Shown here: positions 7,025 through 37,150 of the stretch, one piece after another | Numbering within the stretch: the stretch's first letter is position 1 | Layout: the number at the start of each line of letters is the position of its first letter | Assembly: GCA_049294435.1 (NCBI GenBank) | Contig: JBAQCU010000020.1 | Span: 79,110 to 125,310, forward strand | Reading direction: 5' to 3' | DNA from: Minisyncoccia bacterium | Lineage (GTDB): Bacteria; Patescibacteriota; Minisyncoccia; Phycocordibacterales; UBA1550 | DNA: 46,201 nucleotides | Made by a program: the position numbers and the translations under genes | The notes under the pieces: generated by a model | What the model saw: the letters and a program-made list of their open reading frames with translations, nothing else | What the model was told of the DNA's origin: nothing | Databases searched by the model: none

Positions 7025-9268
7025 CTATTTTGCAAGTTGTTCCGCTTCCTCAAATTTTATAGAAAGAAGCTTTGAAATTGCGTCCGAACCCATGGTTACG
7101 CCGTAGATAATGCCCGCGCGTGACATAGTCTCGCGGTTGTGCGTGATGACAATAAGCTGAGAATACTTTGCAAGTGTTGCCACCATGTCGCCATACTTTT
7201 TAGAATTGGCTTCGTCAAGAGCAGCGTCTGTTTCGTCAAGAACGAGAAATGGTGGTGGGTTGACTTGAGACACTGCAAAGATAAGCGCAATAGAGGTAAG
7301 CGCGCGTTCACCTCCAGAAAGCATCTGAAGACCGCGGATTTTTTTGTGCGGAAGAGAAATAGCCACCTCAATCCCCTCTTCAGCCTCCTCTTCCTCAAGC
7401 TCTTCATGACCCTCTAGTATTTCCGTATCAGTTCTTTTTTTCTTTCTTTCTACCGCAACTTCTAGCGACGCAGTTCCTCCGCCAAACATCAATGCAAAAA
7501 ATTCACCAAACTGTTTATTGATTTTTTTGATACCATCTTTGAACTGCGTTCCAAGCTCCTCCTCGAGTCCGCGCATGAGGTCGCGAAGCGACTCTGCGCT
7601 CGTTTTCAAATCTTCAAGTTCCTTCTCAAGAAATTCGTCTCGAGCGACAGCCTCTTCGTACTCGCGCATAATATCCTCTCCCGAACCACCGCCCATAATA
7701 TCCTCTAAGCGAATCTTTGTACGTTCAATCTTTTTTCTGCGAGACTCTTGTTCCGCGCGAGGCTCCGATAGTGCTTGTTCAATATCAATCTGATTGCTTG
7801 AATATTCTAAAATAGCGCGCCCGATTAAAATTCCTCCTTCACGAAGCTCTTCACGGAATGAAACTTCATCTCGCGAAAAATTTTCTATGTGCTCACGCAC
7901 CATACCAAGACGCAAAGTAAGTTCCTGTTTTTTAGAACGAAACTCAAATGAAGCGCGCTCTGCGTCTGTGACCTCTCTGCGCTTCATTTCAAGCACCCTC
8001 TCTAATTCTTGAATCTTAGTTTCAAAACCAGAAATTAAATTTTCTAGGTTTTGTTGTGCGTCTAAAAGATTTTTGTGCTCAATACGCAAATCTAGAAGAC
8101 CTTTTACCGCAACCTCGCTGGGTCCTCTATTTGCGTCAGTTCCGCGAAGATGCTCAAGAAAGGAACCAATTTTATTTCGCGTTGCACTCACTACACCCTT
8201 TATATACAAATAGTCTTCACTTGACTCTGCATACCCAAGTTCATCATACAAATTTTGCGCGAGTTTCTCCGCCTCCTCCGCATTTACAGTTTTCTCGCGC
8301 AACACATCCGGCGCATTCAAACGCCTTTCCTCAAACTCAATCATTCCTTCAAAGCGTCCAATCTTTCTACCTAGGTCGTCCCTCTCGCGACGCACAGTAC
8401 CCATCTCCGCGCGCGTATGAACAAGCTCTACTACTTCGGCGCTGTCCTTTGTATCTACTCCACGCAAACTGTCAGCGTGAGCAAGCGCTTCGTTTGCCTC
8501 ATGAAGTTCACGCTCGAGATTTTCTTTTTCTCCTTGGAGCTTTTCGCGTGTGTGTTGTATGTATGTTTCTTCTCTCTTCAAATAGTCGCCATACATACTA
8601 GCAAGCTCGTCACGAAGCGCGCGCGCTTGTTCCACCTTCTCCACCTGCTTTTTCAAAAATTTAATATGCGGAGCTATCTCACGACGGAGGGATTCGCTTT
8701 GTCGCATATTTTCCTCTGTTTTTGAAAGTTTCTTTTCACTTTCAAGAATCTTCCAATGATAGATTTTTAGTCCGAGCGCGTCTTCGATCATTGCTCGACG
8801 GTCCTTTGCAGATGAATTTAGAATTCTATCAGCTTCCCCCTGAGAAATAATATGGTGCCCTGATGCGCCGATATGTACTGACGCTAGGAGTTCAATGACA
8901 TCCTTGAGTCGCACTGATGAGCCATTTAGAAAATATCCGCTAGAAGCATCGCGGTGAATCTCGCGAGAAATAGAAACTTCGTCGTAATCAATCGGAAATG
9001 TACGATCTTTGTTGTCAAAGGAAATCGTTACTTTTGCACGATTCTGACGCTCGGTATTTTTTGAACCATTGAAAATGAGGTCCTCCGTGCGCTTGCCACG
9101 CATACTTTTCAGAGACTGCTCCCCGAGCACGAAACGAAGCGCCTCAGCAACATTTGACTTCCCCGACCCGTTTGGCCCCACAATAGCTGAGATATCCGCC
9201 CCAAACTCAAAAACACTCTTCTTGGCGAATGATTTGAATCCGGAAATTTCGAGGGTTTTTACGCGCAT
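7025..9268 (-). CDS. smc: SMC-family chromosome-associated ABC ATPase, unusually short (747 aa)
   Basis: N-terminal head MRVKTLEISGFKSF...GPNGSGKSN, long heptad-rich middle, C-terminal LSGGERALTSIAL signature and FLVLDETDAALD Walker B. Confidence 0.8.
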   Translation of the reverse strand: MRVKTLEISGFKSFAKKSVFEFGADISAIVGPNGSGKSNVAEALRFVLGEQSLKSMRGKRTEDLIFNGSKNTERQNRAKVTISFDNKDRTFPIDYDEVSISREIHRDASSGYFLNGSSVRLKDVIELLASVHIGASGHHIISQGEADRILNSSAKDRRAMIEDALGLKIYHWKILESEKKLSKTEENMRQSESLRREIAPHIKFLKKQVEKVEQARALRDELASMYGDYLKREETYIQHTREKLQGEKENLERELHEANEALAHADSLRGVDTKDSAEVVELVHTRAEMGTVRRERDDLGRKIGRFEGMIEFEERRLNAPDVLREKTVNAEEAEKLAQNLYDELGYAESSEDYLYIKGVVSATRNKIGSFLEHLRGTDANRGPSEVAVKGLLDLRIEHKNLLDAQQNLENLISGFETKIQELERVLEMKRREVTDAERASFEFRSKKQELTLRLGMVREHIENFSRDEVSFREELREGGILIGRAILEYSSNQIDIEQALSEPRAEQESRRKKIERTKIRLEDIMGGGSGEDIMREYEEAVARDEFLEKELEDLKTSAESLRDLMRGLEEELGTQFKDGIKKINKQFGEFFALMFGGGTASLEVAVERKKKRTDTEILEGHEELEEEEAEEGIEVAISLPHKKIRGLQMLSGGERALTSIALIFAVSQVNPPPFLVLDETDAALDEANSKKYGDMVATLAKYSQLIVITHNRETMSRAGIIYGVTMGSDAISKLLSIKFEEAEQLAK

Positions 9269-9277
9269 TGGATTTAG

Positions 9278-9422
9278 TTTACCCCGACACCAACTTTTTG
9301 CATAGTGTTTAATCGCATATCTATCATTTGAGAGTAACCAATTCCCTTACTAGCTTATAAGATATCAGTGATAAAAACGAAAAACACACTGCAATAATGC
9401 AAAAGTTGGTGTGGGGGTTTAA
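9278..9422. repeat. Start-codon-proximal inverted-repeat element, copy A (upstream of smc)
   Basis: Arms tttaccccgacaccaactttttgcata (9278-9304) and aatgcaaaagttggtgtgggggtttaa (9396-9422). The proximal arm ends 9 nt before the smc ATG. Confidence 0.7.
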
Positions 9423-12408: not shown

Positions 12409-13008
12409 TTACACAAGCCCCCTCAGGAAACTTTTGCGGTGATGTGGGATGATACCATTTTTTTTGATTGCTTCGTAGTGCGCGCGGGTGCCGTAGCCTT
12501 TGTGTTTTTCAAAGCCATATGCGGGAAACTTTTTTGCGAGAAGCACCATGCGCGCATCACGCGCCGTTTTTGCAACGATAGACGCAAGCGCAATCACAAG
12601 TTCCTTTTCATCTCCTTTGATAATTGTCTCTTGGTTCTGATAATGCGATGGCGCGCGAAGCGCGCCATCTAGGAGGACTCTTGTTTCCTCCGCATCGTGT
12701 TCAATAGCGCTGAGCGATTTTTCAATAGCTGTACGTATTGCATACGAGAGTCCCTTTTTATCAATCACACTCGGCGTGACAAATGAAACAGAGCAAGAAA
12801 GATACCCGAGCTTCTCCGCTTCACGAATTCTCTCATGCCATTCCGCACGAGACTTTGGTGTAAGTTTTTTGGAATCTTTTACAACAGGGAAAAGTTTGGT
12901 AACTCGCTTGTGGTACTCGGCATATATGCAAACAGCTCCCACAGCAACTGGGCCAGCAAGTGGCCCGCGTCCAACCTCATCAATACCTATAATATACTTG
13001 TGTCGCAT
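12409..13008 (-). CDS. rnhB: Ribonuclease HII
   Basis: IGIDEVGRGPLAGPV active-site motif, 199 aa. Confidence 0.95.
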   Translation of the reverse strand: MRHKYIIGIDEVGRGPLAGPVAVGAVCIYAEYHKRVTKLFPVVKDSKKLTPKSRAEWHERIREAEKLGYLSCSVSFVTPSVIDKKGLSYAIRTAIEKSLSAIEHDAEETRVLLDGALRAPSHYQNQETIIKGDEKELVIALASIVAKTARDARMVLLAKKFPAYGFEKHKGYGTRAHYEAIKKNGIIPHHRKSFLRGLV

Positions 13009-13017
13009 TTTTTACAG

Positions 13018-13110
13018 TATACCCCCACACCTACTTTTAATATAATTGAAAGACATCATTCTAGAAAACTACACTATGCCTATTAGAAATAAAGTAGGTG
13101 TGGGGGTATA
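13018..13110. repeat. Start-codon-proximal inverted-repeat element, copy B (upstream of rnhB)
   Basis: Perfect 20 bp arms tatacccccacacctacttt (13018-13037) / aaagtaggtgtgggggtata (13091-13110), 53 nt spacer. The proximal arm ends 9 nt before the rnhB ATG. Confidence 0.8.
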
Positions 13111-26337: not shown

Positions 26338-26347
26338 AATCCCTTTA

Positions 26348-26491
26348 GTTTACCTCAACACCTACTTTTTGCATAATTTTTGCCGCCATTCCAAAATTGG
26401 TAAAAAATCTGGTCTAGTCTTACATAACTGGCCTTTTAAGTTAGAAATTAAAAAAAATGGCAATAATGCAAAAGTAAGTGTTGGGGTTTAC
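26348..26491. repeat. Start-codon-proximal inverted-repeat element, copy C (upstream of pheS)
   Basis: Arms gtttacctcaacacctactttttgcataat (26348-26377) / ataatgcaaaagtaagtgttggggtttac (26463-26491). The proximal arm ends 10 nt before the pheS ATG. Confidence 0.7.
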
Positions 26492-28729: not shown

Positions 28730-28755
28730 TAAAAAGAAGCCCTTAACGGGCTTCT
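28730..28755 (-). terminator. Intrinsic terminator overlapping the stop of the 28743 gene
   Basis: Minus strand reads gaagccc gttaa gggcttc tttttat. Confidence 0.6.
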
Positions 28756-29171
28756 TTTGCGAACGGGGAAATTAAGATTGAGCTGTTTCCTTCTGTAAAA
28801 ACTTCCTTCTGTGGGGTTGTAGCTATTCCAATATCCTGAACCAAGATAACAGCATTATGACTTAGATTATTGATCGAATTTTGAAGATTAAGCAAATCCT
28901 CGGCGTTTGCTCTCTCGTGTAGCAAAATTCTATCCTCTGTTTCTTTATTACCATCAGAAGGAACTGCGGACGACAAGTAATTCCCGCCCGTACTTGTAAC
29001 TATATAACTCCCTTTCGCCTCTTCTGTAATCGAACACTCCGCACATTGAACAACTTTAGCCACCTCTTTTTTTAAGGATAATGAAAGAGTATCACCAACG
29101 AAGTGCGAATTCATACATATGACAGTGACAAAAATAACAGTAATGCATACGAAAATAAATTTTAAGAACAT
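28743..29171 (-). CDS. Hypothetical secreted or membrane-anchored protein
   Basis: 142 aa with a hydrophobic N-terminus (MFLKFIFVCITVIFVTVICM). Confidence 0.55.
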   Translation of the reverse strand: MFLKFIFVCITVIFVTVICMNSHFVGDTLSLSLKKEVAKVVQCAECSITEEAKGSYIVTSTGGNYLSSAVPSDGNKETEDRILLHERANAEDLLNLQNSINNLSHNAVILVQDIGIATTPQKEVFTEGNSSILISPFAKEAR

Positions 29172-29312
29172 TTTTCCCTCCTAATAATTATAGTGACAAA
29201 TCCGAAAACAATAATACTAAAGAAGTACTAAAAATACAATCGTTTTAGTGGGACAAGACTAGTCACCTCATTTGTTAAACACGACTACTGATGTGTCGTA
29301 ATAATACAAATG

Positions 29313-29963
29313 TTATCTGCTAAAAGTAATAGAGGAAACAATTTGACGCAATATCTCTATCTCTTTTTCGTCTACTGATTCATTGGAAAGCAGTGGGTGG
29401 ATTTCAAAAACTATGCCAGGGAAAAGTGAGTTTGGGATATTCACAAAAACAGCGACACTTTTATTGGAAAGAACTTGCCCAATTTCCGTATTTCGTACAA
29501 CTATAGCTTTATCACCACCTTTATTCACCGACCAGAACTCACTCGGCACAACACGGTCATCTCCCCATACAAACTTAACAAGATACGCATCACCAACTTT
29601 TTCATATCCATAAGTATCTACAAGACTTCCCCCCCTAGATTTGGTAAAATCCTTTGTAACACCACCAAAGGAAATCCAGTGGTTTTGAGCAAATTCAAGC
29701 ACACCAGTTAATCTGCGACCCGTATCGCCATTCACTACTTGAATATTAACTCTTTTGAAAATATCGGGATACTGAAAAGAGATGCCGAACTCTTTATTCT
29801 GATACATTTTCCATTCCCCTATTTTATTATCAACAATCTCTTTCTTTTGCTGTTGCGAGATAGGGTTGCCCCTATCAGCGAGCCTGCCACCCATAAAAAT
29901 ACTCCACAATGTTACACCACTAACGATAGTAAATATTGCAATTATTATTGTTTTTTTATTCAT
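29313..29963 (-). CDS. Hypothetical secreted or membrane-anchored protein
   Basis: 216 aa from MNKKTIIIAIFTIVSGVTLWSIF. No family recognised. Confidence 0.55.
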   Translation of the reverse strand: MNKKTIIIAIFTIVSGVTLWSIFMGGRLADRGNPISQQQKKEIVDNKIGEWKMYQNKEFGISFQYPDIFKRVNIQVVNGDTGRRLTGVLEFAQNHWISFGGVTKDFTKSRGGSLVDTYGYEKVGDAYLVKFVWGDDRVVPSEFWSVNKGGDKAIVVRNTEIGQVLSNKSVAVFVNIPNSLFPGIVFEIHPLLSNESVDEKEIEILRQIVSSITFSR

Positions 29964-30047
29964 ATTACAAAACATTGTACAGTTAATCCACTAAAAATAC
30001 AAAGAAAAAGGGATGATGTTGTGCATCATCCCTTAAGCCTCATTAAT

Positions 30048-31175
30048 CTACGGCACCAAATACATCTGCTTGATAAAGTACTCTTCTGGTCCCGGACTTG
30101 CCGTGCATCCTTGCGATGGTTGAATCATCAAATCAGTAATAATGCCGTTCCAGTCCGCCAGCCCTGACATGCCGAGATTGTACACTCTTGCGGAGTCATA
30201 ATTGAATGTACCATTATGCCACGCATTGTCCGGCTTGCGATACCAAATTACCACTGGGTTCGTAACACATCTAAAGTCGAGAGCGAGCACTAAGTGCTTG
30301 AATACGTCGGCATTAAGCGTAATCTCGCGGCTACAAACTGCAGTTTCACCGCACGCCACATCTCCAAAGAAACTACCACGACCGACATATGGATTCACAG
30401 AACTGCTGTCTATCCATAGGTCGCTATTCGTAGCATTATAAGCATTCACAAACATTGCGCCCCACAATTCCTTGTTGTTGTTTTCAGCAAATGTATAGAA
30501 ATATGCATAGCCGAGAACGAACGGGAGAGGATTGTGGGTGTATTGCGGTACTTCAGGAATAGCGATGTCATCTGAATCTTCTACGCGACCTGTAGGATAC
30601 CATGGGTATGGGTCCGCATGCGGTTTATCTACTTGGAAGTGCAGGTGCGAGCCTGTGCTAGTGCCGTGACATGGATCCGAAAGCGCACCACCAGATTCGC
30701 CAATGGTTAACCCCTCAGCGACAGGAGCCCCAACGGCTGGCGCTGATACGCTACGGAGATGAGCATATCCAAGATAGGCCTTCTCTCCTGCTACATAAGG
30801 ACTATTAACTTCGATCACAACGAGCCCTCCCCATGTAGAGTCGCAAGTATCGCGACGCACCACGGTTCCAGATAGCGCAGCGAGCACGGGTGTTCCACTT
30901 ACAACTGCTATGTCCACACCCGGATGTTTACCGCATCGTTCCCCTGCACAACCAGATGTACGATTGTAGTTATCGCGATATAACGTTGTAAACATTTTGC
31001 GACCAGCAGTGCTGTCGCAGTTTGCCGTAGCACTATCGCAATCACCTCCTGTAGCAGGTGTCCCATAGTAAGTGCCATTGTAGTCTGGCATGTTTGCAAT
31101 CGGTTTAGTACCAGCTATTGCTGTTTGTCCAAAATTAGCAACGCACAACAAAACGACCATGAGTAACTTCTTCAT
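30048..31175 (-). CDS. Secreted M23 (LytM-type) metallopeptidase with an uncharacterised C-terminal domain
   Basis: Signal peptide MKKLLMVVLLCVANFGQTAIAG, HxxxD (HPGVD) and HxH (GSHLHFQV) motifs. The C-terminal ~180 aa are unassigned. Confidence 0.85.
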   Translation of the reverse strand: MKKLLMVVLLCVANFGQTAIAGTKPIANMPDYNGTYYGTPATGGDCDSATANCDSTAGRKMFTTLYRDNYNRTSGCAGERCGKHPGVDIAVVSGTPVLAALSGTVVRRDTCDSTWGGLVVIEVNSPYVAGEKAYLGYAHLRSVSAPAVGAPVAEGLTIGESGGALSDPCHGTSTGSHLHFQVDKPHADPYPWYPTGRVEDSDDIAIPEVPQYTHNPLPFVLGYAYFYTFAENNNKELWGAMFVNAYNATNSDLWIDSSSVNPYVGRGSFFGDVACGETAVCSREITLNADVFKHLVLALDFRCVTNPVVIWYRKPDNAWHNGTFNYDSARVYNLGMSGLADWNGIITDLMIQPSQGCTASPGPEEYFIKQMYLVP

Positions 31176-31205
31176 TTTCTACTCCTTTTTAAGTTTTGAG
31201 AAAGA

Positions 31206-31237
31206 ACAAAGTCGGTTGCTAACCAATCGACTTTTGT
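31206..31237 (-). terminator. Terminator downstream of the displaced prfA 3' end
   Basis: Minus strand reads acaaaagtcgattg gttag caaccgactttg ttctttctc. About 35 nt after the stop of the prfA remnant. Confidence 0.55.
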
Positions 31238-31271
31238 ATCATAGCACTATTATTTTTTTATTAACAACTTT

Positions 31272-31340
31272 TTACTCTCCATCCTCCGCATCTCCCACGG
31301 TACCCTTTGCGCAGGCTTCCAAGATGGGCTCAATGTTGCC
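31272..31340 (-). pseudogene. Displaced duplicate of the prfA 3' end (last 22 codons plus stop)
   Basis: Translates to GNIEPILEACAKGTVGDAEDGE*, versus GNIEPILEACAKGTVGDAQEGE* for functional prfA (32102-32170). 57 of 69 nt are identical by hand alignment, and the differences are mostly synonymous. Confidence 0.75.
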
Positions 31341-31344
31341 GACA

Positions 31345-31365
31345 CTTGGAAACCGGACATCCAAG
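31345..31365 (+). repeat. REP-like hairpin motif, copy 1 (flanks the transposase gene)
   Basis: cttgga aaccggaca tccaag. A variant of GGAAACCCGACGTCCAAG. Confidence 0.6.
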
Positions 31366-31368
31366 TAC

Positions 31369-32058
31369 CTACAATTCCTCTGCAAAGATATCGGTATTGT
31401 CTCGACTAGCAGCCCTTCTATTTAAAATATCATTCAAGGTTGAGAGCGCGAACTTTTTATATTCACGAATATTTTTGTACTGCTCCAAAATAATATCTTT
31501 ATTACAAAAATTACTTTCTGCTTCTCCTATGTATTCTCCCCAGCTCGTTCTGCTCTTTACCAACTTGGACGTCGGGTTTCCAAGTTGGTGGACACGGTCG
31601 TTTAAGTTCACATAAGCACTTGAATGAAGTAAGTATTCATTTGAATCTATATGAACAGCTTTGTACTTCCCTTGAAACAAAACTCCTGACCGCTTATGCT
31701 TTTCGTTAAAATATTTTGTATATCCTCCACCAAGTCTTTTCATAAACATACTCACTCCGTCATCAACAAGTTGCTCTAATATAAAATGATAATGATTTGG
31801 GTTAAGACAATATGCAACAAAGTTAACAAGTCTTTTCTCTTTTACTTTTTCAGATTTCGACTTCGACGTCGGGTTTCCAGGTTTTTGCTTTTTAAATGAA
31901 TTTTCAAAAATACTTCCTATTGGTTCAACAGTATTGAACTCCTCCATACTCTGCATAAAACGGTCAACATCACTTTCATCAGAAAAAACGGTTCGCTTGT
32001 CTGTCCCACGATTGTACACGTGATAGAACTCACCATTTGCAAAAGAAATATTTCTCAT
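31369..32058 (-). CDS. IS200/IS605-type Y1 (HUH) transposase, RAYT-like
   Basis: 229 aa from MRNISFANGEFYHVYNRG.., with the HUH motif NPNHYHFIL, YTKYFNEKHKRSGVLFQGKYK, and Tyr in SSAYVNLN. The ORF-track N-terminal extension runs through flanking repeat copy 4. Confidence 0.8.
   Translation of the reverse strand: MRNISFANGEFYHVYNRGTDKRTVFSDESDVDRFMQSMEEFNTVEPIGSIFENSFKKQKPGNPTSKSKSEKVKEKRLVNFVAYCLNPNHYHFILEQLVDDGVSMFMKRLGGGYTKYFNEKHKRSGVLFQGKYKAVHIDSNEYLLHSSAYVNLNDRVHQLGNPTSKLVKSRTSWGEYIGEAESNFCNKDIILEQYKNIREYKKFALSTLNDILNRRAASRDNTDIFAEEL
31560..31588 (-). repeat. REP-like motif, copy 2 (inside the transposase CDS, 10 bp stem)
   Basis: ccaacttgga cgtcgggtt tccaagttgg. Encodes ..LGNPTSKL.. 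Confidence 0.6.
31864..31881 (-). repeat. REP-like motif, copy 3 (inside the transposase CDS)
   Basis: cgacgtcgggtttccagg. Encodes ..PGNPTSK.. Confidence 0.55.
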
Positions 32059-32077
32059 GTGCCTTCTATTGTACCAT

Positions 32078-32097
32078 TTGGAAACCCGACGTCCAAG
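32078..32097 (+). repeat. REP-like hairpin motif, copy 4 (5 nt after the prfA stop)
   Basis: ttgga aacccgacg tccaa g. Confidence 0.6.
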
Positions 32098-32101
32098 TAG
32101 A

Positions 32102-33070
32102 TTATTCACCTTCCTGCGCATCGCCCACTGTCCCCTTTGCACAGGCTTCTAGGATTGGCTCAATATTGCCGAGGAAAATCTTTTCAATATTGCTCCACGA
32201 CTGTTTGATGCGGTGGTCGGTGATGCGGTCTTGAAGAATGTTGTAGGTGCGGATTTTCTCCGAGCGGTCGCCGGTACCAATCTGACCTTTGCGGTCTGCG
32301 GACACATCACTCTCCTTTTTTGCGCGATCAATGTCCTCGAGTCGCGCCATAAGCATCGACATTGCCTTCTCGCGGTTCTTTACTTGGCTTCGCTCGCTTG
32401 TGCAACGCACCGCGAGGCCTGTTGGTTTGTGAATGATACGCACGGCAGTTTCCACTTTGTTCACGTTCTGGCCACCCGCACCACCAGAGCGAGAGAACTC
32501 CATCTCGAGGTCTGCAGGATTAATAGTGAAAGTTGTTACTGGATAAATAGGAAGCACCACTACTGAAGCAGTGGAAGTATGCACACGTCCCATTTTTTCT
32601 GTTGCGGGAATGCGCTGTACACGGTGCACGCCAGTCTCCCAGCGGAGCATGTCGTATGCATCTTTGCTTTTTATTTCAAACGATGCTTCTTTGTAGCCAC
32701 CCATTTCACTCTGATGCTCATCAAGCTTTTTAAATTCCCATCCTTTTTTTTCAGCAAAGCGTTCGTACATCATCGCGAGATCCTGTGCAAAAATTGCCGC
32801 CTCTTCTCCCCCCGCACCAGCACGCACTTCTAAAATAATCTCCTTTGGCCTAACCTCCTCCTCCTTATCACCATCAATAATCTCTGTCATCTGTTTTTCA
32901 AGTGCATCAATCTGCGAACGAAGAGTTGCGAGCTCACTCGCGCCCATCTCGGCGAATTCTCCGTCTGCCGATATCATTCCCTCCACCTCCGCCTCAGCAG
33001 TCAAAAGACGCTCGTACTCATCTGCGAGATATTTTGTTTTTTGATTTGATTTGAATGTTTCAATGTCCAT
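32102..33070 (-). CDS. prfA: Peptide chain release factor 1
   Basis: 322 aa with the PAT tripeptide (RIPATEKMGRVHTS) and the GGQ motif (SGGAGGQNVNKVETAVR). Confidence 0.95.
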   Translation of the reverse strand: MDIETFKSNQKTKYLADEYERLLTAEAEVEGMISADGEFAEMGASELATLRSQIDALEKQMTEIIDGDKEEEVRPKEIILEVRAGAGGEEAAIFAQDLAMMYERFAEKKGWEFKKLDEHQSEMGGYKEASFEIKSKDAYDMLRWETGVHRVQRIPATEKMGRVHTSTASVVVLPIYPVTTFTINPADLEMEFSRSGGAGGQNVNKVETAVRIIHKPTGLAVRCTSERSQVKNREKAMSMLMARLEDIDRAKKESDVSADRKGQIGTGDRSEKIRTYNILQDRITDHRIKQSWSNIEKIFLGNIEPILEACAKGTVGDAQEGE

Positions 33071-33549: not shown

Positions 33550-33635
33550 GTATACCCCCACACCTACTTTTTGTGCCAGAACATTGTATTTTTACCGCTC
33601 ATATAAATATGCAAAAAGTAGGTGTGGGGGTATAC
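33550..33635. repeat. Start-codon-proximal inverted-repeat element, copy D (upstream of the nuclease gene)
   Basis: Perfect 23 bp arms gtatacccccacacctacttttt / aaaaagtaggtgtgggggtatac, 40 nt spacer. The proximal arm ends 8 nt before ATG 33644. Confidence 0.8.
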
Positions 33636-33643
33636 TAAATGAT

Positions 33644-34219
33644 ATGCAAAAGTGGCTAATCACTGGACTTATTGTGGTATTTTTAGCGCTTGCGGTGCAG
33701 GATGGGTTTTTAAGCATGATTGACGATGATACAGCCCCGCTTCTTACGAGGTCGGACCTCGTAAGAAGCGGGGCTGTCAAACAGCTAGCCTCACTATCAA
33801 ATCCTACTCTGCCTATCGTGATCCGCGTAATAGATGGCGACACTATTATAGTTCTCGTAAATGGTGCACAAGAAAAAATACGTCTAATAGGTGTAGACAC
33901 ACCAGAAACTGTTGACCCGCGAGGGTCAGTGCAGTGCTTCGGCGAGGAAGCAAGCGAATTCACAAGGTCAATACTTGTAAACCAAGTTGTTCGCCTAGAG
34001 TCTGATGCTTCGCAGGATGACCGCGATAAATATGGACGACTTCTACGTTATGTATTTCTTGGAGATACTTTGATAAACAAAGAACTTATATCTCTAGGTT
34101 ATGGGCACGAATACACTTATCGTCGAGTATACAAGTACCAAAAAGAGTTTAAAGATGCCGAGATGAGCGCGCGTAATTCACAAGAAGGTCTGTGGTCTGA
34201 GTCGGCTTGCAAGGATTGA
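33644..34219 (+). CDS. Membrane-anchored staphylococcal-nuclease-like (SNase/thermonuclease) protein
   Basis: MQKWLITGLIVVFLALAV (TM), then IRVIDGDTIIV...IRLIGVDTPE...RDKYGRLLRYVF. I prefer ATG 33644, because the TTG-extended ORF is made of repeat D. Confidence 0.85.
   Translation: MQKWLITGLIVVFLALAVQDGFLSMIDDDTAPLLTRSDLVRSGAVKQLASLSNPTLPIVIRVIDGDTIIVLVNGAQEKIRLIGVDTPETVDPRGSVQCFGEEASEFTRSILVNQVVRLESDASQDDRDKYGRLLRYVFLGDTLINKELISLGYGHEYTYRRVYKYQKEFKDAEMSARNSQEGLWSESACKD
33731..33777. repeat. 47 bp palindrome (23 bp perfect arms) inside the nuclease CDS
   Basis: acagccccgcttcttacgaggtc g gacctcgtaagaagcggggctgt. Encodes TAPLLTRSDLVRSGAV in the linker between the TM helix and the nuclease domain. 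Confidence 0.9.
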
Positions 34220-35192: not shown

Positions 35193-36089
35193 CTATCGTT
35201 CCATTCCTCGGAGAACCGCGATACGTTCAGATGCTTCCGGGTGTGTGGCAAAAAGTTTACTCATAAACGAGACTGCCTTACCGTTTTTGAGCGGGTTTGA
35301 TATATACAGATGAGCTGTGGCGGTGCTCACTCGCTGAAGTCCTGTTGGATATGCGGATATTTTTTCTAGAGCAGATGCGAGCCCTTCTGGGTAGCGTGTA
35401 AGGAGCGCGCCAGATGCATCCGCGAGAAATTCACGTTTGCGAGAAATAGCAAGTTTGATAAGTTGAGCAACGATTGGGGTTAGGATTGCGAATACTATCC
35501 CAATTATCATAAGTATCAACCCAAGACGACCATCACGATTATTATTATTACCACCATAGAATGACATTCTTAAAAAAATGTCGGAAATAATTGCAATAAA
35601 ACCAACAAGTACTACAACCACAGTACCAATCAAAGTATCCCTGTTTCCTATATGCGAAAGCTCGTGCGCTATTACTCCTTCAAGTTCAGTTTTGTTTAAA
35701 ATCGCGAGAAGCCCTGTTGTTGCCGCGACTGCCGCATGATCCTTGTCGCGCCCTGTTGCGAATGCGTTTGGGGATGGGTCATCAATGACATACACCTTTG
35801 GCATCGGAAGCCCTGCGGTGATTGAGAGATTTTCAACAGCATTCCACAAATCAAAATACTCCTCACGCTTGGCAGGTTTTGCCCCTGACATTTTAATCAC
35901 CAGTGAATCCGAATACCAATAACTCCAGATGTTCATGCCGACACTGAAAATGACACCGAAATAAAGTATCGTTGGATTATTTTGAATATAACTAAACAAC
36001 CACGCGATACCGATAACCACCACGAAAAAAATGGTCATTAAAAACCAAGTCTTTCGTACATTTTTATCTTGGTGGGTATATAAAGTCAT
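35193..36089 (-). CDS. htpX: HtpX-type M48 membrane zinc protease
   Basis: HELSHIGNRD (HExxH) plus TM helices. I prefer ATG 36089 (MTLYTHQDKNVRKTW..), because the longer ORF would overlap hicA. Confidence 0.9.
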   Translation of the reverse strand: MTLYTHQDKNVRKTWFLMTIFFVVVIGIAWLFSYIQNNPTILYFGVIFSVGMNIWSYWYSDSLVIKMSGAKPAKREEYFDLWNAVENLSITAGLPMPKVYVIDDPSPNAFATGRDKDHAAVAATTGLLAILNKTELEGVIAHELSHIGNRDTLIGTVVVVLVGFIAIISDIFLRMSFYGGNNNNRDGRLGLILMIIGIVFAILTPIVAQLIKLAISRKREFLADASGALLTRYPEGLASALEKISAYPTGLQRVSTATAHLYISNPLKNGKAVSFMSKLFATHPEASERIAVLRGMER

Positions 36090-36111
36090 TTTGAATTTTG
36101 AATAACAATTA

Positions 36112-36318
36112 TTAGTTCTTTCCAAAACTTTCTATAGCAAGGTAGATTTGCTTTACTATTTTAGGATGCAAAATTGCACTGCCGTGAATCGGTAAAGTAA
36201 TCCTTATACCTTCACGGTAATACTGCGCGTGGCTACCTGCTTGCCTTCCAAACACAAAACCTTTACCCTCAATGAGGTCGACGGCCTCCTTCGCACTTAG
36301 TCTTGGAGATTTAGGCAT
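36112..36318 (-). CDS. hicA: HicA-family mRNA interferase toxin
   Basis: 68 aa: MPKSPRLSAKEAVDLIEGKGFVFGRQAGSHAQYY.. Typical HicA/YcfA. Confidence 0.8.
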   Translation of the reverse strand: MPKSPRLSAKEAVDLIEGKGFVFGRQAGSHAQYYREGIRITLPIHGSAILHPKIVKQIYLAIESFGKN

Positions 36319-36321
36319 GTG

Positions 36322-36549
36322 CTAGGAAGAAAGAGTCAGAGACGATATTGTGAGAGAAACGGAGTCTCTTAAATCAACACGCTCTCCACGAGACTTAATG
36401 TCATCAAGTGTCATTTTTAAAACATCTTTTAGATTTTCACGCACATTCTCTTCTGTGTCACCTTGCGCATAAACCCCCTGGATGAACGGGCACTCAGCAT
36501 AATATCCATCCTCTGTCTTTTCAATAATAATTGGATATGTATTTGTCAT
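36322..36549 (-). CDS. hicB: HicB-family antitoxin
   Basis: 75 aa from MTNTYPIIIEKTEDGYYAECPFIQGVYAQGDTEENVRENLKDVL. Its stop is 3 nt before the hicA start. Confidence 0.75.
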   Translation of the reverse strand: MTNTYPIIIEKTEDGYYAECPFIQGVYAQGDTEENVRENLKDVLKMTLDDIKSRGERVDLRDSVSLTISSLTLSS

Positions 36550-36584
36550 ACCGAAACTATACCACATACGCTGACCTGTGCAAG

Positions 36585-36632
36585 CCATGTTTTGCACACA
36601 TTTTTATCTTGGTGGGTGTATAGGGTTGCCAT
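36585..36632 (-). pseudogene. Fossil copy B of the htpX 5' end (16 codons)
   Basis: ATGGCAACCCTATACACCCACCAAGATAAAAATGTGTGCAAAACATGG = MATLYTHQDKNVCKTW. It then diverges, and the frame stops 8 nt before hicB. Confidence 0.7.
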
Positions 36633-36639
36633 AAAATAT

Positions 36640-37002
36640 TTAAAAATTCGAAGAAATAAGGGACCCCATCATACCAAATAGCGCCAAGATCACCAAAGAA
36701 AAAAGGATCCATGCTGCGATTTTGAAAGGGGTGCGCATTCCTGGGATATCGTTCCCCTGAGCAGAATCGGGGCTCACTGCTGGCAATGTATTTTTTTTAC
36801 TTACTACCAAAAAATATGCAAAATTTAACAAAGAAACTAACATCACTCCTGTCCCCAGAAATGTGAGTACTTGTATAACATACTGAAGGTTGTGCCAATT
36901 ACCGCGAACAAGCAATCCTTGACCCAATATTAACAAGGCACCCGCTATTTTAAAGTCGCGTATGAGTACCCTCCTTTTTTCCTTAAAGATATCTGGGTTC
37001 AT
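36640..37002 (-). CDS. Hypothetical membrane protein (cassette between htpX 5' copies C and B)
   Basis: 120 aa from MNPDIFKEKRRV.., with 3-4 TM helices. The start is uncertain, since a TTG at 37050 is also possible. Confidence 0.5.
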   Translation of the reverse strand: MNPDIFKEKRRVLIRDFKIAGALLILGQGLLVRGNWHNLQYVIQVLTFLGTGVMLVSLLNFAYFLVVSKKNTLPAVSPDSAQGNDIPGMRTPFKIAAWILFSLVILALFGMMGSLISSNF

Positions 37003-37054
37003 GTTTTTAGAGGGGCCACCTTTGAGTGTGCGATTAGTTAGATAGACCAACCCT

Positions 37055-37120
37055 GAAGATCGTCATCAAAAGCCACGTCTTGCGCACATTTTTATCTTGC
37101 TGGGTGTAAAGGGTTGCCAT
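37055..37120 (-). pseudogene. Fossil copy C of the htpX 5' end (22 codons)
   Basis: MATLYTQQDKNVRKTWLLMTIF, versus MTLYTHQDKNVRKTWFLMTIF for functional htpX. It then diverges to RVGLSN*. Confidence 0.7.
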
Positions 37121-37150
37121 ATCGCTAATATTTTTTATCTTACCATGCCT

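Follow-up and report, generated by a model that had tools for sequence, protein, structure and literature searches.

The prfA locus and its duplicated end

The window, i.e. the whole stretch of DNA analysed here, comprises 46,201 nt of contig JBAQCU010000020.1 from a Minisyncoccia bacterium (assembly GCA_049294435.1, positions 79,110 to 125,310). It carries prfA, the gene for peptide chain release factor 1, whose 3' end is found a second time downstream of a small Y1/HUH transposase-type gene. On the minus strand, the order is rpmE, prfA, a 23-nt hairpin motif, the gene for a 229-aa protein, a further copy of the motif and the displaced prfA end. Three genes for secreted proteins follow and then rpsB, tsf, pheS and pheT. 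prfA itself (32102 to 33070, minus strand) is intact: Its 322-aa product matches Pfam PCRF (E 3.9e-50) and RF-1 (E 1.9e-38), and the gene shares 94% identity with prfA from Yonathbacteria-type genomes. In the following, c1 designates the in-use prfA end and c2 the displaced copy, and related loci are given as L numbers.

The working gene terminates with ..GNIEPILEACAKGTVGDAQEGE and a stop codon, the displaced copy (31272 to 31340) encodes GNIEPILEACAKGTVGDAEDGE and a stop codon, and the terminal stretch of prfA includes ..AATATTGAAAAGATTTTCCTCGGCAATATTGAGCC... A hand alignment in the original prediction had found 57 of 69 nt identical over 22 codons plus stop, and this count was confirmed. Similarity had been thought to end exactly at a Gly codon. 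It extends 2 nt (TC) further, which gives a repeat of 71 nt with 59 identical positions and a spacing of 830 nt, and L001 (GCA_016235505.1) has traces of about 7 more nt. Repeat search, alignment and self-BLAST place c1 at 32102 to 32172 and c2 at 31272 to 31342, both on the minus strand. In a formal test, self-BLAST of the window returned the duplicate with E = 3.7e-14; local alignment of both copies scores 41-43, shuffled sequence at most 14. Ten of the 12 differences lie at third codon positions and two at first positions, one of the latter belonging to a synonymous Leu exchange (CTA/TTG). Mostly synonymous differences with only two amino acid changes, as predicted, are therefore what is seen; the changes between c1 and c2 are Q to E and E to D. 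The longest identical run comprises 8 nt in the window and 11 nt in L001. Frame and stop of c2 are intact, and there is no reading frame upstream of it.

As a side observation, the duplicated segment starts at the 3' arm of an imperfect 13-bp inverted repeat within prfA (32156 to 32197; TGGAGCAATATTG .. CAATATTGAGCCA). This inverted repeat stems from the repeated peptide SNIE/GNIE around the palindrome CAATATTG.

The cassette between the two copies

The 830-nt unit between the prfA copies is composed of a hairpin motif, a RAYT-like gene with two further motifs in frame, and a terminal motif. It is a selfish cassette of a Patescibacteria-wide family. The gene (31369 to 32058, minus strand) had been assigned to the Y1 transposases, and its 229-aa product indeed exceeds the threshold of Pfam Y1_Tnp PF01797 (32.2 bits at a cut-off of 23, E 1.3e-7). 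The HUH motif is H89-Y-H91, and Y149 is the conserved tyrosine. H89 and H91 (in NPNHYH) as well as Y149 (in SAYVNLN) are invariant in an alignment of 33 homologues. An AlphaFold model (pLDDT 75.8, pTM 0.77) has its top Foldseek match in 4ER8, the Escherichia coli TnpA-REP on a REP (repetitive extragenic palindromic) hairpin, with E 2.5e-5 and TM 0.65; IS608 and ISDra2 TnpA are the next matches. With the NCBIfam RAYT model (REP_Tyr_transpos, NF047646) the protein reaches 31.1 bits, below the cut-off of 80, and it does not match the IS200 model NF033573. A PDB search with the protein sequence gave no match, and an exact-sequence lookup no identical record. More than 3200 matches with about 57-88% identity were found in Patescibacteria, under names from Yonath-, Moran- and Paceibacteria.

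The motif ACTTGG-N11-CCAAGT occurs four times in the 46-kb window, each time at the Y1 gene, and no copy is expected by chance. The left copy (ACTTGGACGTCGGGTTTCCAAAT; 32076 to 32098, minus strand like all four) begins 3 nt past the prfA stop and not 5 nt as noted earlier, and its stem has only 5 bp. It overlaps the -35 box of a promoter-like site of the Y1 gene (TGGACG-16-TG-TACAAT, 32095 to 32068). The right copy (31344 to 31366) lies 2 nt past the transposase stop and 3 nt ahead of c2. Both internal copies are inverted and in frame, and both encode loops that are modelled with low confidence. The first one (31860 to 31882) is degenerate and encodes PGNPTSKS. The second one (31563 to 31585) has an 11-bp stem, encodes QLGNPTSKL and folds with -10.6 kcal/mol (z -5.5).

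A hairpin census was performed at 74 non-redundant related loci. The left motif was found in 68 of them, the right one in 56 and a matching pair of left and right in 47. At least one internal motif is present in 70 loci, and in 68 an internal motif matches a flanking one with at most two mismatches, though the inner bases vary between loci. Likewise, the succession of left motif, extended -10 box (TGnTAnAAT) and ATG recurs in 68 loci. No conserved flank was detected among 67 left joints. A co-oriented gene ends at most 32 nt upstream of the left hairpin in 35 of 70 non-redundant loci and at most 7 nt upstream in 20 of the 70. Within prfA, a search of 86 genes did not yield any in-frame hairpin motif.

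Some details of the hairpins may be added. At some loci, the TAA of the upstream gene overlaps the left hairpin stem. The asymmetric inner part occurs in both orientations at one and the same position across the 74 loci: In L170 the left copy is forward and the right one reversed, in L172 it is the opposite. Internal copies mostly have the opposite orientation to the flanking copies. The closest relative of the window protein (88-89% identical) is encoded in another context in L167 (211 to 894). There, HNH replaces HYH at the HUH motif, and RVH is missing before the second internal hairpin; judged by these changes, the L167 gene may be decaying.

Divergence of the two gene ends

Nonsynonymous (dN) and synonymous (dS) divergence between the copies was calculated, as had been proposed. 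Between c1 and c2 of the window, dN is 0.041 and dS 1.53, i.e. dN/dS is about 0.03 with dS above 1. L001, with 15 differences between its two copies, has a dN of 0.083 and a dS of 3.37. L113, where a different gene is concerned (see below), yielded 0.079 and 0.81. When the displaced copies of the window and L001 are compared with each other, 13 differences are found, 10 of them at third positions (P = 0.0016), with a dN of 0.087 and a dS of 1.15. The working ends of the same two loci have 12 differences, a dN of 0.083 and a dS of 0.91. The two displaced copies differ from each other in the same way as the two working ends do. The excess of third-position differences has P values of 5e-4, 3e-4 and 1.6e-3, the last one for the two displaced copies.

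In a simulation, both copies were identical at birth, the working one evolved under selection and the other one neutrally, and runs with at most the observed number of amino acid changes were counted. Such runs amounted to 0.03% for the window, 0.05% for L001 and 0 of 4000 for L113. The complete c2 copies of these three loci are devoid of indels, and their stop position is unchanged. In L012 and L086, the working ends encode exactly the peptide of the window's c2. Since prfA nucleotide identity between the lineages concerned is about 75-90%, a piece of DNA that had been neutral from the origin of the clade onwards would be unrecognizable. Each complete c2 must therefore have served as a functional gene end until a short time ago. 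Visible decay of c2 is found in L086 and L168, and because it is reduced to about 21 nt in L086 and L166, it must be dispensable.

Carriers and empty sites

The arrangement is not confined to the window. In L001, an 86%-identical gene is located at the same place and followed by a complete second prfA end. In L086 (a JGI contig) and L166 (an ENA contig), only about 21 nt of c2 (GGCAACATTGCGTCAATCCTC) are left, followed by the rpsB upstream region. L168 (a Logan contig) has an 81%-identical cassette behind prfA and next to it a 26-nt piece of prfA and half a hairpin. This piece originates from about 40 codons before the stop and matches in 24 of 26 positions, with a score of 22 compared to a null maximum of 15. 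The right joint is common to the window, L001 and L086: It consists of the hairpin, G(T)nC and GGCAAC, and indels in the T-run are the sole difference there. In every carrier, c2 adjoins the distal hairpin at a distance of 0-11 nt, and the DNA immediately past c2 varies by lineage.

In L086 (1440 to 2040) and L166 (110 to 740), a canonical IS200/IS605 TnpA gene was found between the left hairpin and the RAYT-like gene. It encodes 143 aa (132 bits with NCBIfam transpos_IS200) and has its own hairpin, CCCTGTGGTCTCTGCCACAGGG, on either side. L086 also contains the same 29 nt, TAATCACTTGGACGTCGGGTTTCCAAGTG, after both the prfA stop and the transposase stop.

A comparison with the prfA loci of relatives, as recommended originally, revealed that most close relatives have an empty site. 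Among the 26 closest prfA loci, i.e. those of the prfA tree below, the majority has the rpsB promoter or start within 54-212 nt and no second copy, and others contain unrelated cargo of 0.8-2.4 kb in the spacer, again without any duplicate. In 80 prfA loci from species-representative genomes, neither a cassette downstream of prfA nor a duplicated gene end was present. In seven relatives searched, neither a second prfA end nor a second rpsB start was found beside other cargo in the prfA-rpsB spacer.

In a prfA protein tree, the window falls inside a clade of 12 genomes (100/99), and L001 is the sister of the empty L012 and L013 (98/92). In a tree of rpsB and tsf, L001 joins L012 (99/98), the window groups with empty genomes and L086 stands apart. 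According to these trees, the carriers are not monophyletic, and several gains or at least four losses would be required.

The same bracket at other genes

Two further genes are bracketed in the same way. In L113, a 59%-identical cassette is located behind the gene for a 719-aa surface protein, the last 20 codons and stop of which are repeated past the distal hairpin. Of the 63 nt, 52 are identical with one amino acid change, and the differences include Ser TCA versus AGT and the stop TAA versus TAG. In L145, the last 7 codons and the stop of a convergent gene are repeated (24/26). Here, the cassette is oriented oppositely, and the relic copy also touches the far hairpin. Flank repeats in L143, L147 and L126 were considered as gene-end duplicates and rejected, as they proved to be intergenic repeats or hairpin doublets.

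Cassettes lacking a duplicate are found as well. L167, L169, L170 and L172 have the identical hairpin and encode 74-89% identical proteins behind other genes. In a tree of the transposase proteins, read with L168 disregarded, prfA-linked copies are inseparable from those at other sites. Since cassettes without duplicates are present in unrelated contexts, the hairpin-gene-hairpin segment is the mobile unit, and the gene-end duplication accompanies it only occasionally. In L002 (606 to 770), and likewise in L015 and L087, the cassette is located upstream of a block of SNase, rpmE and prfA genes. Ahead of it, a 5' fragment of another Y1-like gene is found (54 codons; MQRNFEFSINEFYHVYNRGNN..), and the stop of this fragment overlaps the stem of the hairpin. 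The second internal hairpin of these three loci differs in sequence (CTTGGAGGTAAGGACTCCAAA), with pairing kept.

A similar pattern had been noticed at the 5' end of htpX, and this observation holds: Three copies were found at 36042-36093, 36582-36633 and 37070-37121. This triplicate (36042 to 37121, minus strand) brackets a hicBA cassette and a membrane-protein cassette and is devoid of the hairpin motif and of a transposase. As neither hairpin nor Y1 gene is present at htpX, the general process does not need the Y1 enzyme.

Origin of the second prfA end

The dN/dS values, the simulation, the empty sites, the scattered carriers and the dispensable c2 of L086 and L166 support the earlier proposal that two gene ends with separate coding histories were joined when the cassette arrived and that the resident end was left as a relic. 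How they were joined is a matter of probability. We see a slightly better than even chance that the cassette came with a donor gene end by recombination with a related, diverged lineage. In such a scenario, the donor lineage would have carried the cassette behind its own prfA, and donor DNA would have paired with the prfA body of the recipient, which provided upstream homology. The donor gene end (c1) and the cassette would have entered together. The downstream joint would connect the foot of the distal hairpin with a point 22-26 codons ahead of the resident stop, so that the resident end (c2) would be displaced downstream and no longer used. L001 retains GTTTTTTC at this joint, which resembles the ..GTTTTTCTG.. 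codons of prfA. Afterwards, the prfA body could serve as left arm and c2 as right arm, and the cassette could enter relatives by ordinary homologous recombination. Spread by these prfA arms would be independent of what the recipient has downstream of prfA. In addition, each transfer would exchange part of c2 for the recipient's own, recently functional end.

This account fits the shared joint, the lineage-specific DNA after c2, the scattered distribution and the freshness of c2 in two lineages. Because c1 and c2 do not share an identical run above 8 nt, they should recombine poorly with each other, which would make the insertion stable. Insertions with identical repeats would be lost quickly, which may account for the absence of any but diverged pairs. 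The direction (c1 foreign, c2 resident), the route of DNA uptake and the illegitimate first joint at the hairpin are all steps that we infer.

Several observations weigh against recombination with a diverged lineage. No donor lineage with the cassette directly behind an unduplicated prfA end is among the sampled loci. Sliding-window identity along prfA did not reveal any recombination breakpoint. c2 of the window, with 10-11 differences to its nearest relatives L008 and L007, is only slightly closer to them than c1 with 12, and these figures come from short, synonymously saturated 69-nt ends. When these ends are compared throughout, all pairs are 10-18 nt apart in a star-like, saturated pattern that does not yield a usable tree. 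Furthermore, RecA works poorly on a 69-nt arm with an identity of about 83%. Finally, four independent brackets (two prfA joints, L113 and L145) among about 70 cassettes are many for a rare illegitimate event. These four brackets hint at a participation of the enzyme encoded by the cassette.

Doubtful, if still to be taken seriously, is an integration of Campbell type or a site-specific one. A circle composed of prfA end, hairpin, gene and hairpin would have integrated by a single crossover into the resident end, and the circle would set the outer limits of the repeats. RecA, the Y1 enzyme in the role of an integrase or a recombinase with its gene elsewhere could have made this crossover. Y1 enzymes of the IS200/IS605 family release circular single-stranded intermediates, as known for IS608, and this speaks for such a route, as do the identical right joint in three non-sister lineages and the similar repeat lengths of 63-71 nt at prfA and L113. 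Repeated exchange with functional ends would also keep both copies coding-like. However, the original prediction that no integrase is evident was borne out: The Y1 gene is the only gene between the repeats, and no integrase gene lies beside the unit. An identical core is missing too, as the longest common run in the window is that of 8 nt, and the limits vary, with the 26-nt fragment of L168 coming from further upstream and the repeat of L145 measuring 25 nt. Moreover, the hairpin-bounded unit occurs elsewhere without a gene end.

It is unlikely that the RAYT-like HUH enzyme itself drives a homing-like spread in which it would nick or cut cassette-free genes near their end and repair would copy the cassette from a carrier. 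The synonymously recoded proximal end might then protect the carrier and prevent deletion, and the displaced end beside the distal hairpin could act as downstream homology arm. The limit of the prfA duplication coincides with the 3' arm of the imperfect 13-bp hairpin on CAATATTG. Homing would explain four brackets among about 70 cassettes as well as the start of at least a fifth of them at most 7 nt from the host stop.

Quite unlikely is one ancestral insertion with a target duplication of 70-80 nt, generated by staggered cuts or by a template switch during replication and followed by vertical descent and losses. The joint common to the window, L001 and L086 would be expected in this case, the T-run indels upstream of c2 resemble neutral decay, L086 has a truncated and L168 a fragmentary c2, and there is a precedent for long target duplications (PMC2853133). 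The simulation, however, rejects identical birth followed by neutral evolution of c2 at three loci (P ~3e-4, 5e-4 and <2.5e-4). In addition, the displaced copies of the window and L001 have diverged from each other in the manner of working genes (dN/dS 0.075; 10/13 at third positions), and the c2 copies of these two loci and L113 lack indels and stop changes. At least four independent losses would be needed in the 12-genome clade. A target duplication may nevertheless describe the very first event.

Very unlikely is a continued use of c2, in which a fraction of the population or of the transcripts would lose the cassette together with c1 and both copies would remain under purifying selection. 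In two lineages, c2 is coding-like and has kept its stop and frame, and a deletion of exactly the 830-nt spacing would keep the frame. By contrast, the shortening of c2 to about 21 nt in L086 and L166 and to a fragment in L168 occurred without harm to prfA. An open frame upstream of c2 is lacking, the preceding bases have lineage-specific indels, recombination between copies with at most 8 identical bases in a row should be rare, and neither an intron-like nor a bypass element was seen.

Hardly credible is an assembly artefact joining two strains, which was named originally as a refuting condition: The genome is metagenome-derived, but the order of the parts and the joint were recovered in independent NCBI, JGI, ENA and Logan assemblies, five with the window included, and the joint does not require a k-mer path shared between strains.

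Comparison with known systems

IS200/IS605 elements have distinct left and right subterminal hairpins, insert 3' of a fixed tetra- or pentanucleotide and do not generate target duplications. By contrast, the cassette has the same motif at both ends and no conserved flank, and long duplications are present at prfA, L113 and L145. A poor fit to classical Y1 transposition had been predicted and is evident from this different layout.

REP/RAYT systems comprise many dispersed REP copies per genome and a single RAYT gene. The cassette resembles them in encoding a HUH/Y1 protein with 4ER8 as best structural match and in the short palindrome copies flanking its gene. It deviates in its score below the NCBIfam RAYT cut-off and in the two palindromes that lie in frame inside the gene; in 46 kb, only the four motif copies of the cassette are found. 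To our knowledge, no duplication of gene ends has been described for REP/RAYT systems. A literature search did not find a paper that combines 'RAYTs' and 'candidate phyla radiation'.

Integrative elements carrying substitute gene ends are e14 and phage 21 in icd as well as islands targeting tRNA or tmRNA genes. As in the window, the working end is attached to the gene body, and the displaced old end is located downstream. In contrast to these elements, the prfA unit has neither an integrase nor an identical core and spans only 830 nt.

Restriction-modification units are known for 'insertion with long target duplication' (Nobusato et al., 2000; Furuta et al., 2010; PMC2853133), which, together with the fungal hybrids treated below, comes closest to the prfA case. 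It was described mostly in naturally competent bacteria and yields near-identical repeats, e.g. 44/46 or 417/423 (PMC2853133). Small unit size, direct repeats above 30 bp of which the empty site of relatives has a single copy, variable repeat lengths, overlap of some repeats with gene 3' ends and lack of an integrase are common to those insertions and the window. However, the prfA repeats are only 83% identical with coding-type differences, and the cargo is a transposase-like gene with hairpin ends. C-terminal displacement arrays of Rhs, contact-dependent inhibition (CDI) and type VI secretion system (T6SS) proteins, which likewise have a working end at the gene body and a displaced old one downstream, were attributed to homology-facilitated illegitimate recombination (PMC5361080). 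In the window, the gene concerned is an essential housekeeping gene and not a polymorphic toxin.

The closest parallel in gene order comes from mobile-ORF (open reading frame) gene hybrids of fungal mitochondria. As summarized in PMC3630166, which cites Paquin et al. (1994), they include atp6 of Allomyces macrogynus and atp6, atp9, cox2 and nad3 of Glomus sp. According to the same summary, they are due to a homing endonuclease, and a sister-species test identified the inserted end as foreign (PMC3630166). Both in these hybrids and in the window, the order is core, inserted C-terminal piece, mobile nuclease gene and C-terminal piece left downstream; the inserted piece is foreign and the downstream one native in the hybrids and presumably so in the window. 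Likewise, the copies diverge far more in DNA than in protein, and the distribution among close relatives is patchy. Unlike the LAGLIDADG or GIY-YIG enzymes of the fungal hybrids, the enzyme of the window is of the HUH/Y1 type with hairpin sites, its gene lacks an in-frame fusion to the host gene, and a bacterium is the host. If the homing reading applied, the cassette would be a bacterial single-strand-nuclease counterpart of these hybrids.

Bacteria of the candidate phyla radiation have tiny genomes with few classical mobile elements, cultivated genetics is not available for them, and gene content varies between close relatives. At prfA, at htpX 4 kb away and at two loci elsewhere, DNA was added recurrently at the very ends of conserved genes. 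The incoming DNA would contribute a gene end of its own, and the previous one would persist as a dated scar. Such scars can be counted and mark recent gene flow between lineages. A participation of the hairpin-cutting enzyme would amount to a mode of action new for HUH/Y1 proteins. If the enzyme were not involved, a selfish cassette would use an essential gene as portable homology and spread by ordinary recombination.

The prfA-rpsB spacer and neighbouring features

The prfA-rpsB spacer is a hot spot: Its length among relatives varies from 54 to 3521 nt, with unrelated cargo in close relatives. Hot-spot spacers are present in the window (28743 to 32101) and in L006, L007, L012, L013, L017, L023 and L024. 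Only the final ~120 nt, the rpsB upstream region, are common. In the window, the part between c2 and rpsB (28743 to 31175, minus strand) is occupied by three lineage-specific genes for secreted or anchored proteins, one of them an M23 peptidase. These genes are other cargo of the hot spot. L010 (4000 to 4040) has a lone 23-nt hairpin 5 nt past the prfA stop, and the locus contains neither a transposase nor a second end.

Between c2 and the M23 peptidase gene, a promoter-like site (31267 to 31238) and a hairpin (~31208-31234) were detected (31208 to 31267, minus strand). This hairpin, formerly regarded as the terminator after c2, is real (-7.2 kcal/mol, z -3.0) and followed by TTTGTTCTTTC, but a consensus scan did not call a terminator. 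As it is preceded by the promoter-like site, it may belong to the next gene.

In L009, L010 and L026, the conserved tail of prfA contains a 10-residue insert (GLPAISNETAG-like) between GTVG and the acidic end. Self-comparison of the window also revealed other dispersed repeats at 9265-9421, 13005-13047, 26344-26490 and 33605-33647. They include a 149-nt direct pair with 65% identity and 35-43-nt inverted matches to a palindromic element beside a nuclease gene.

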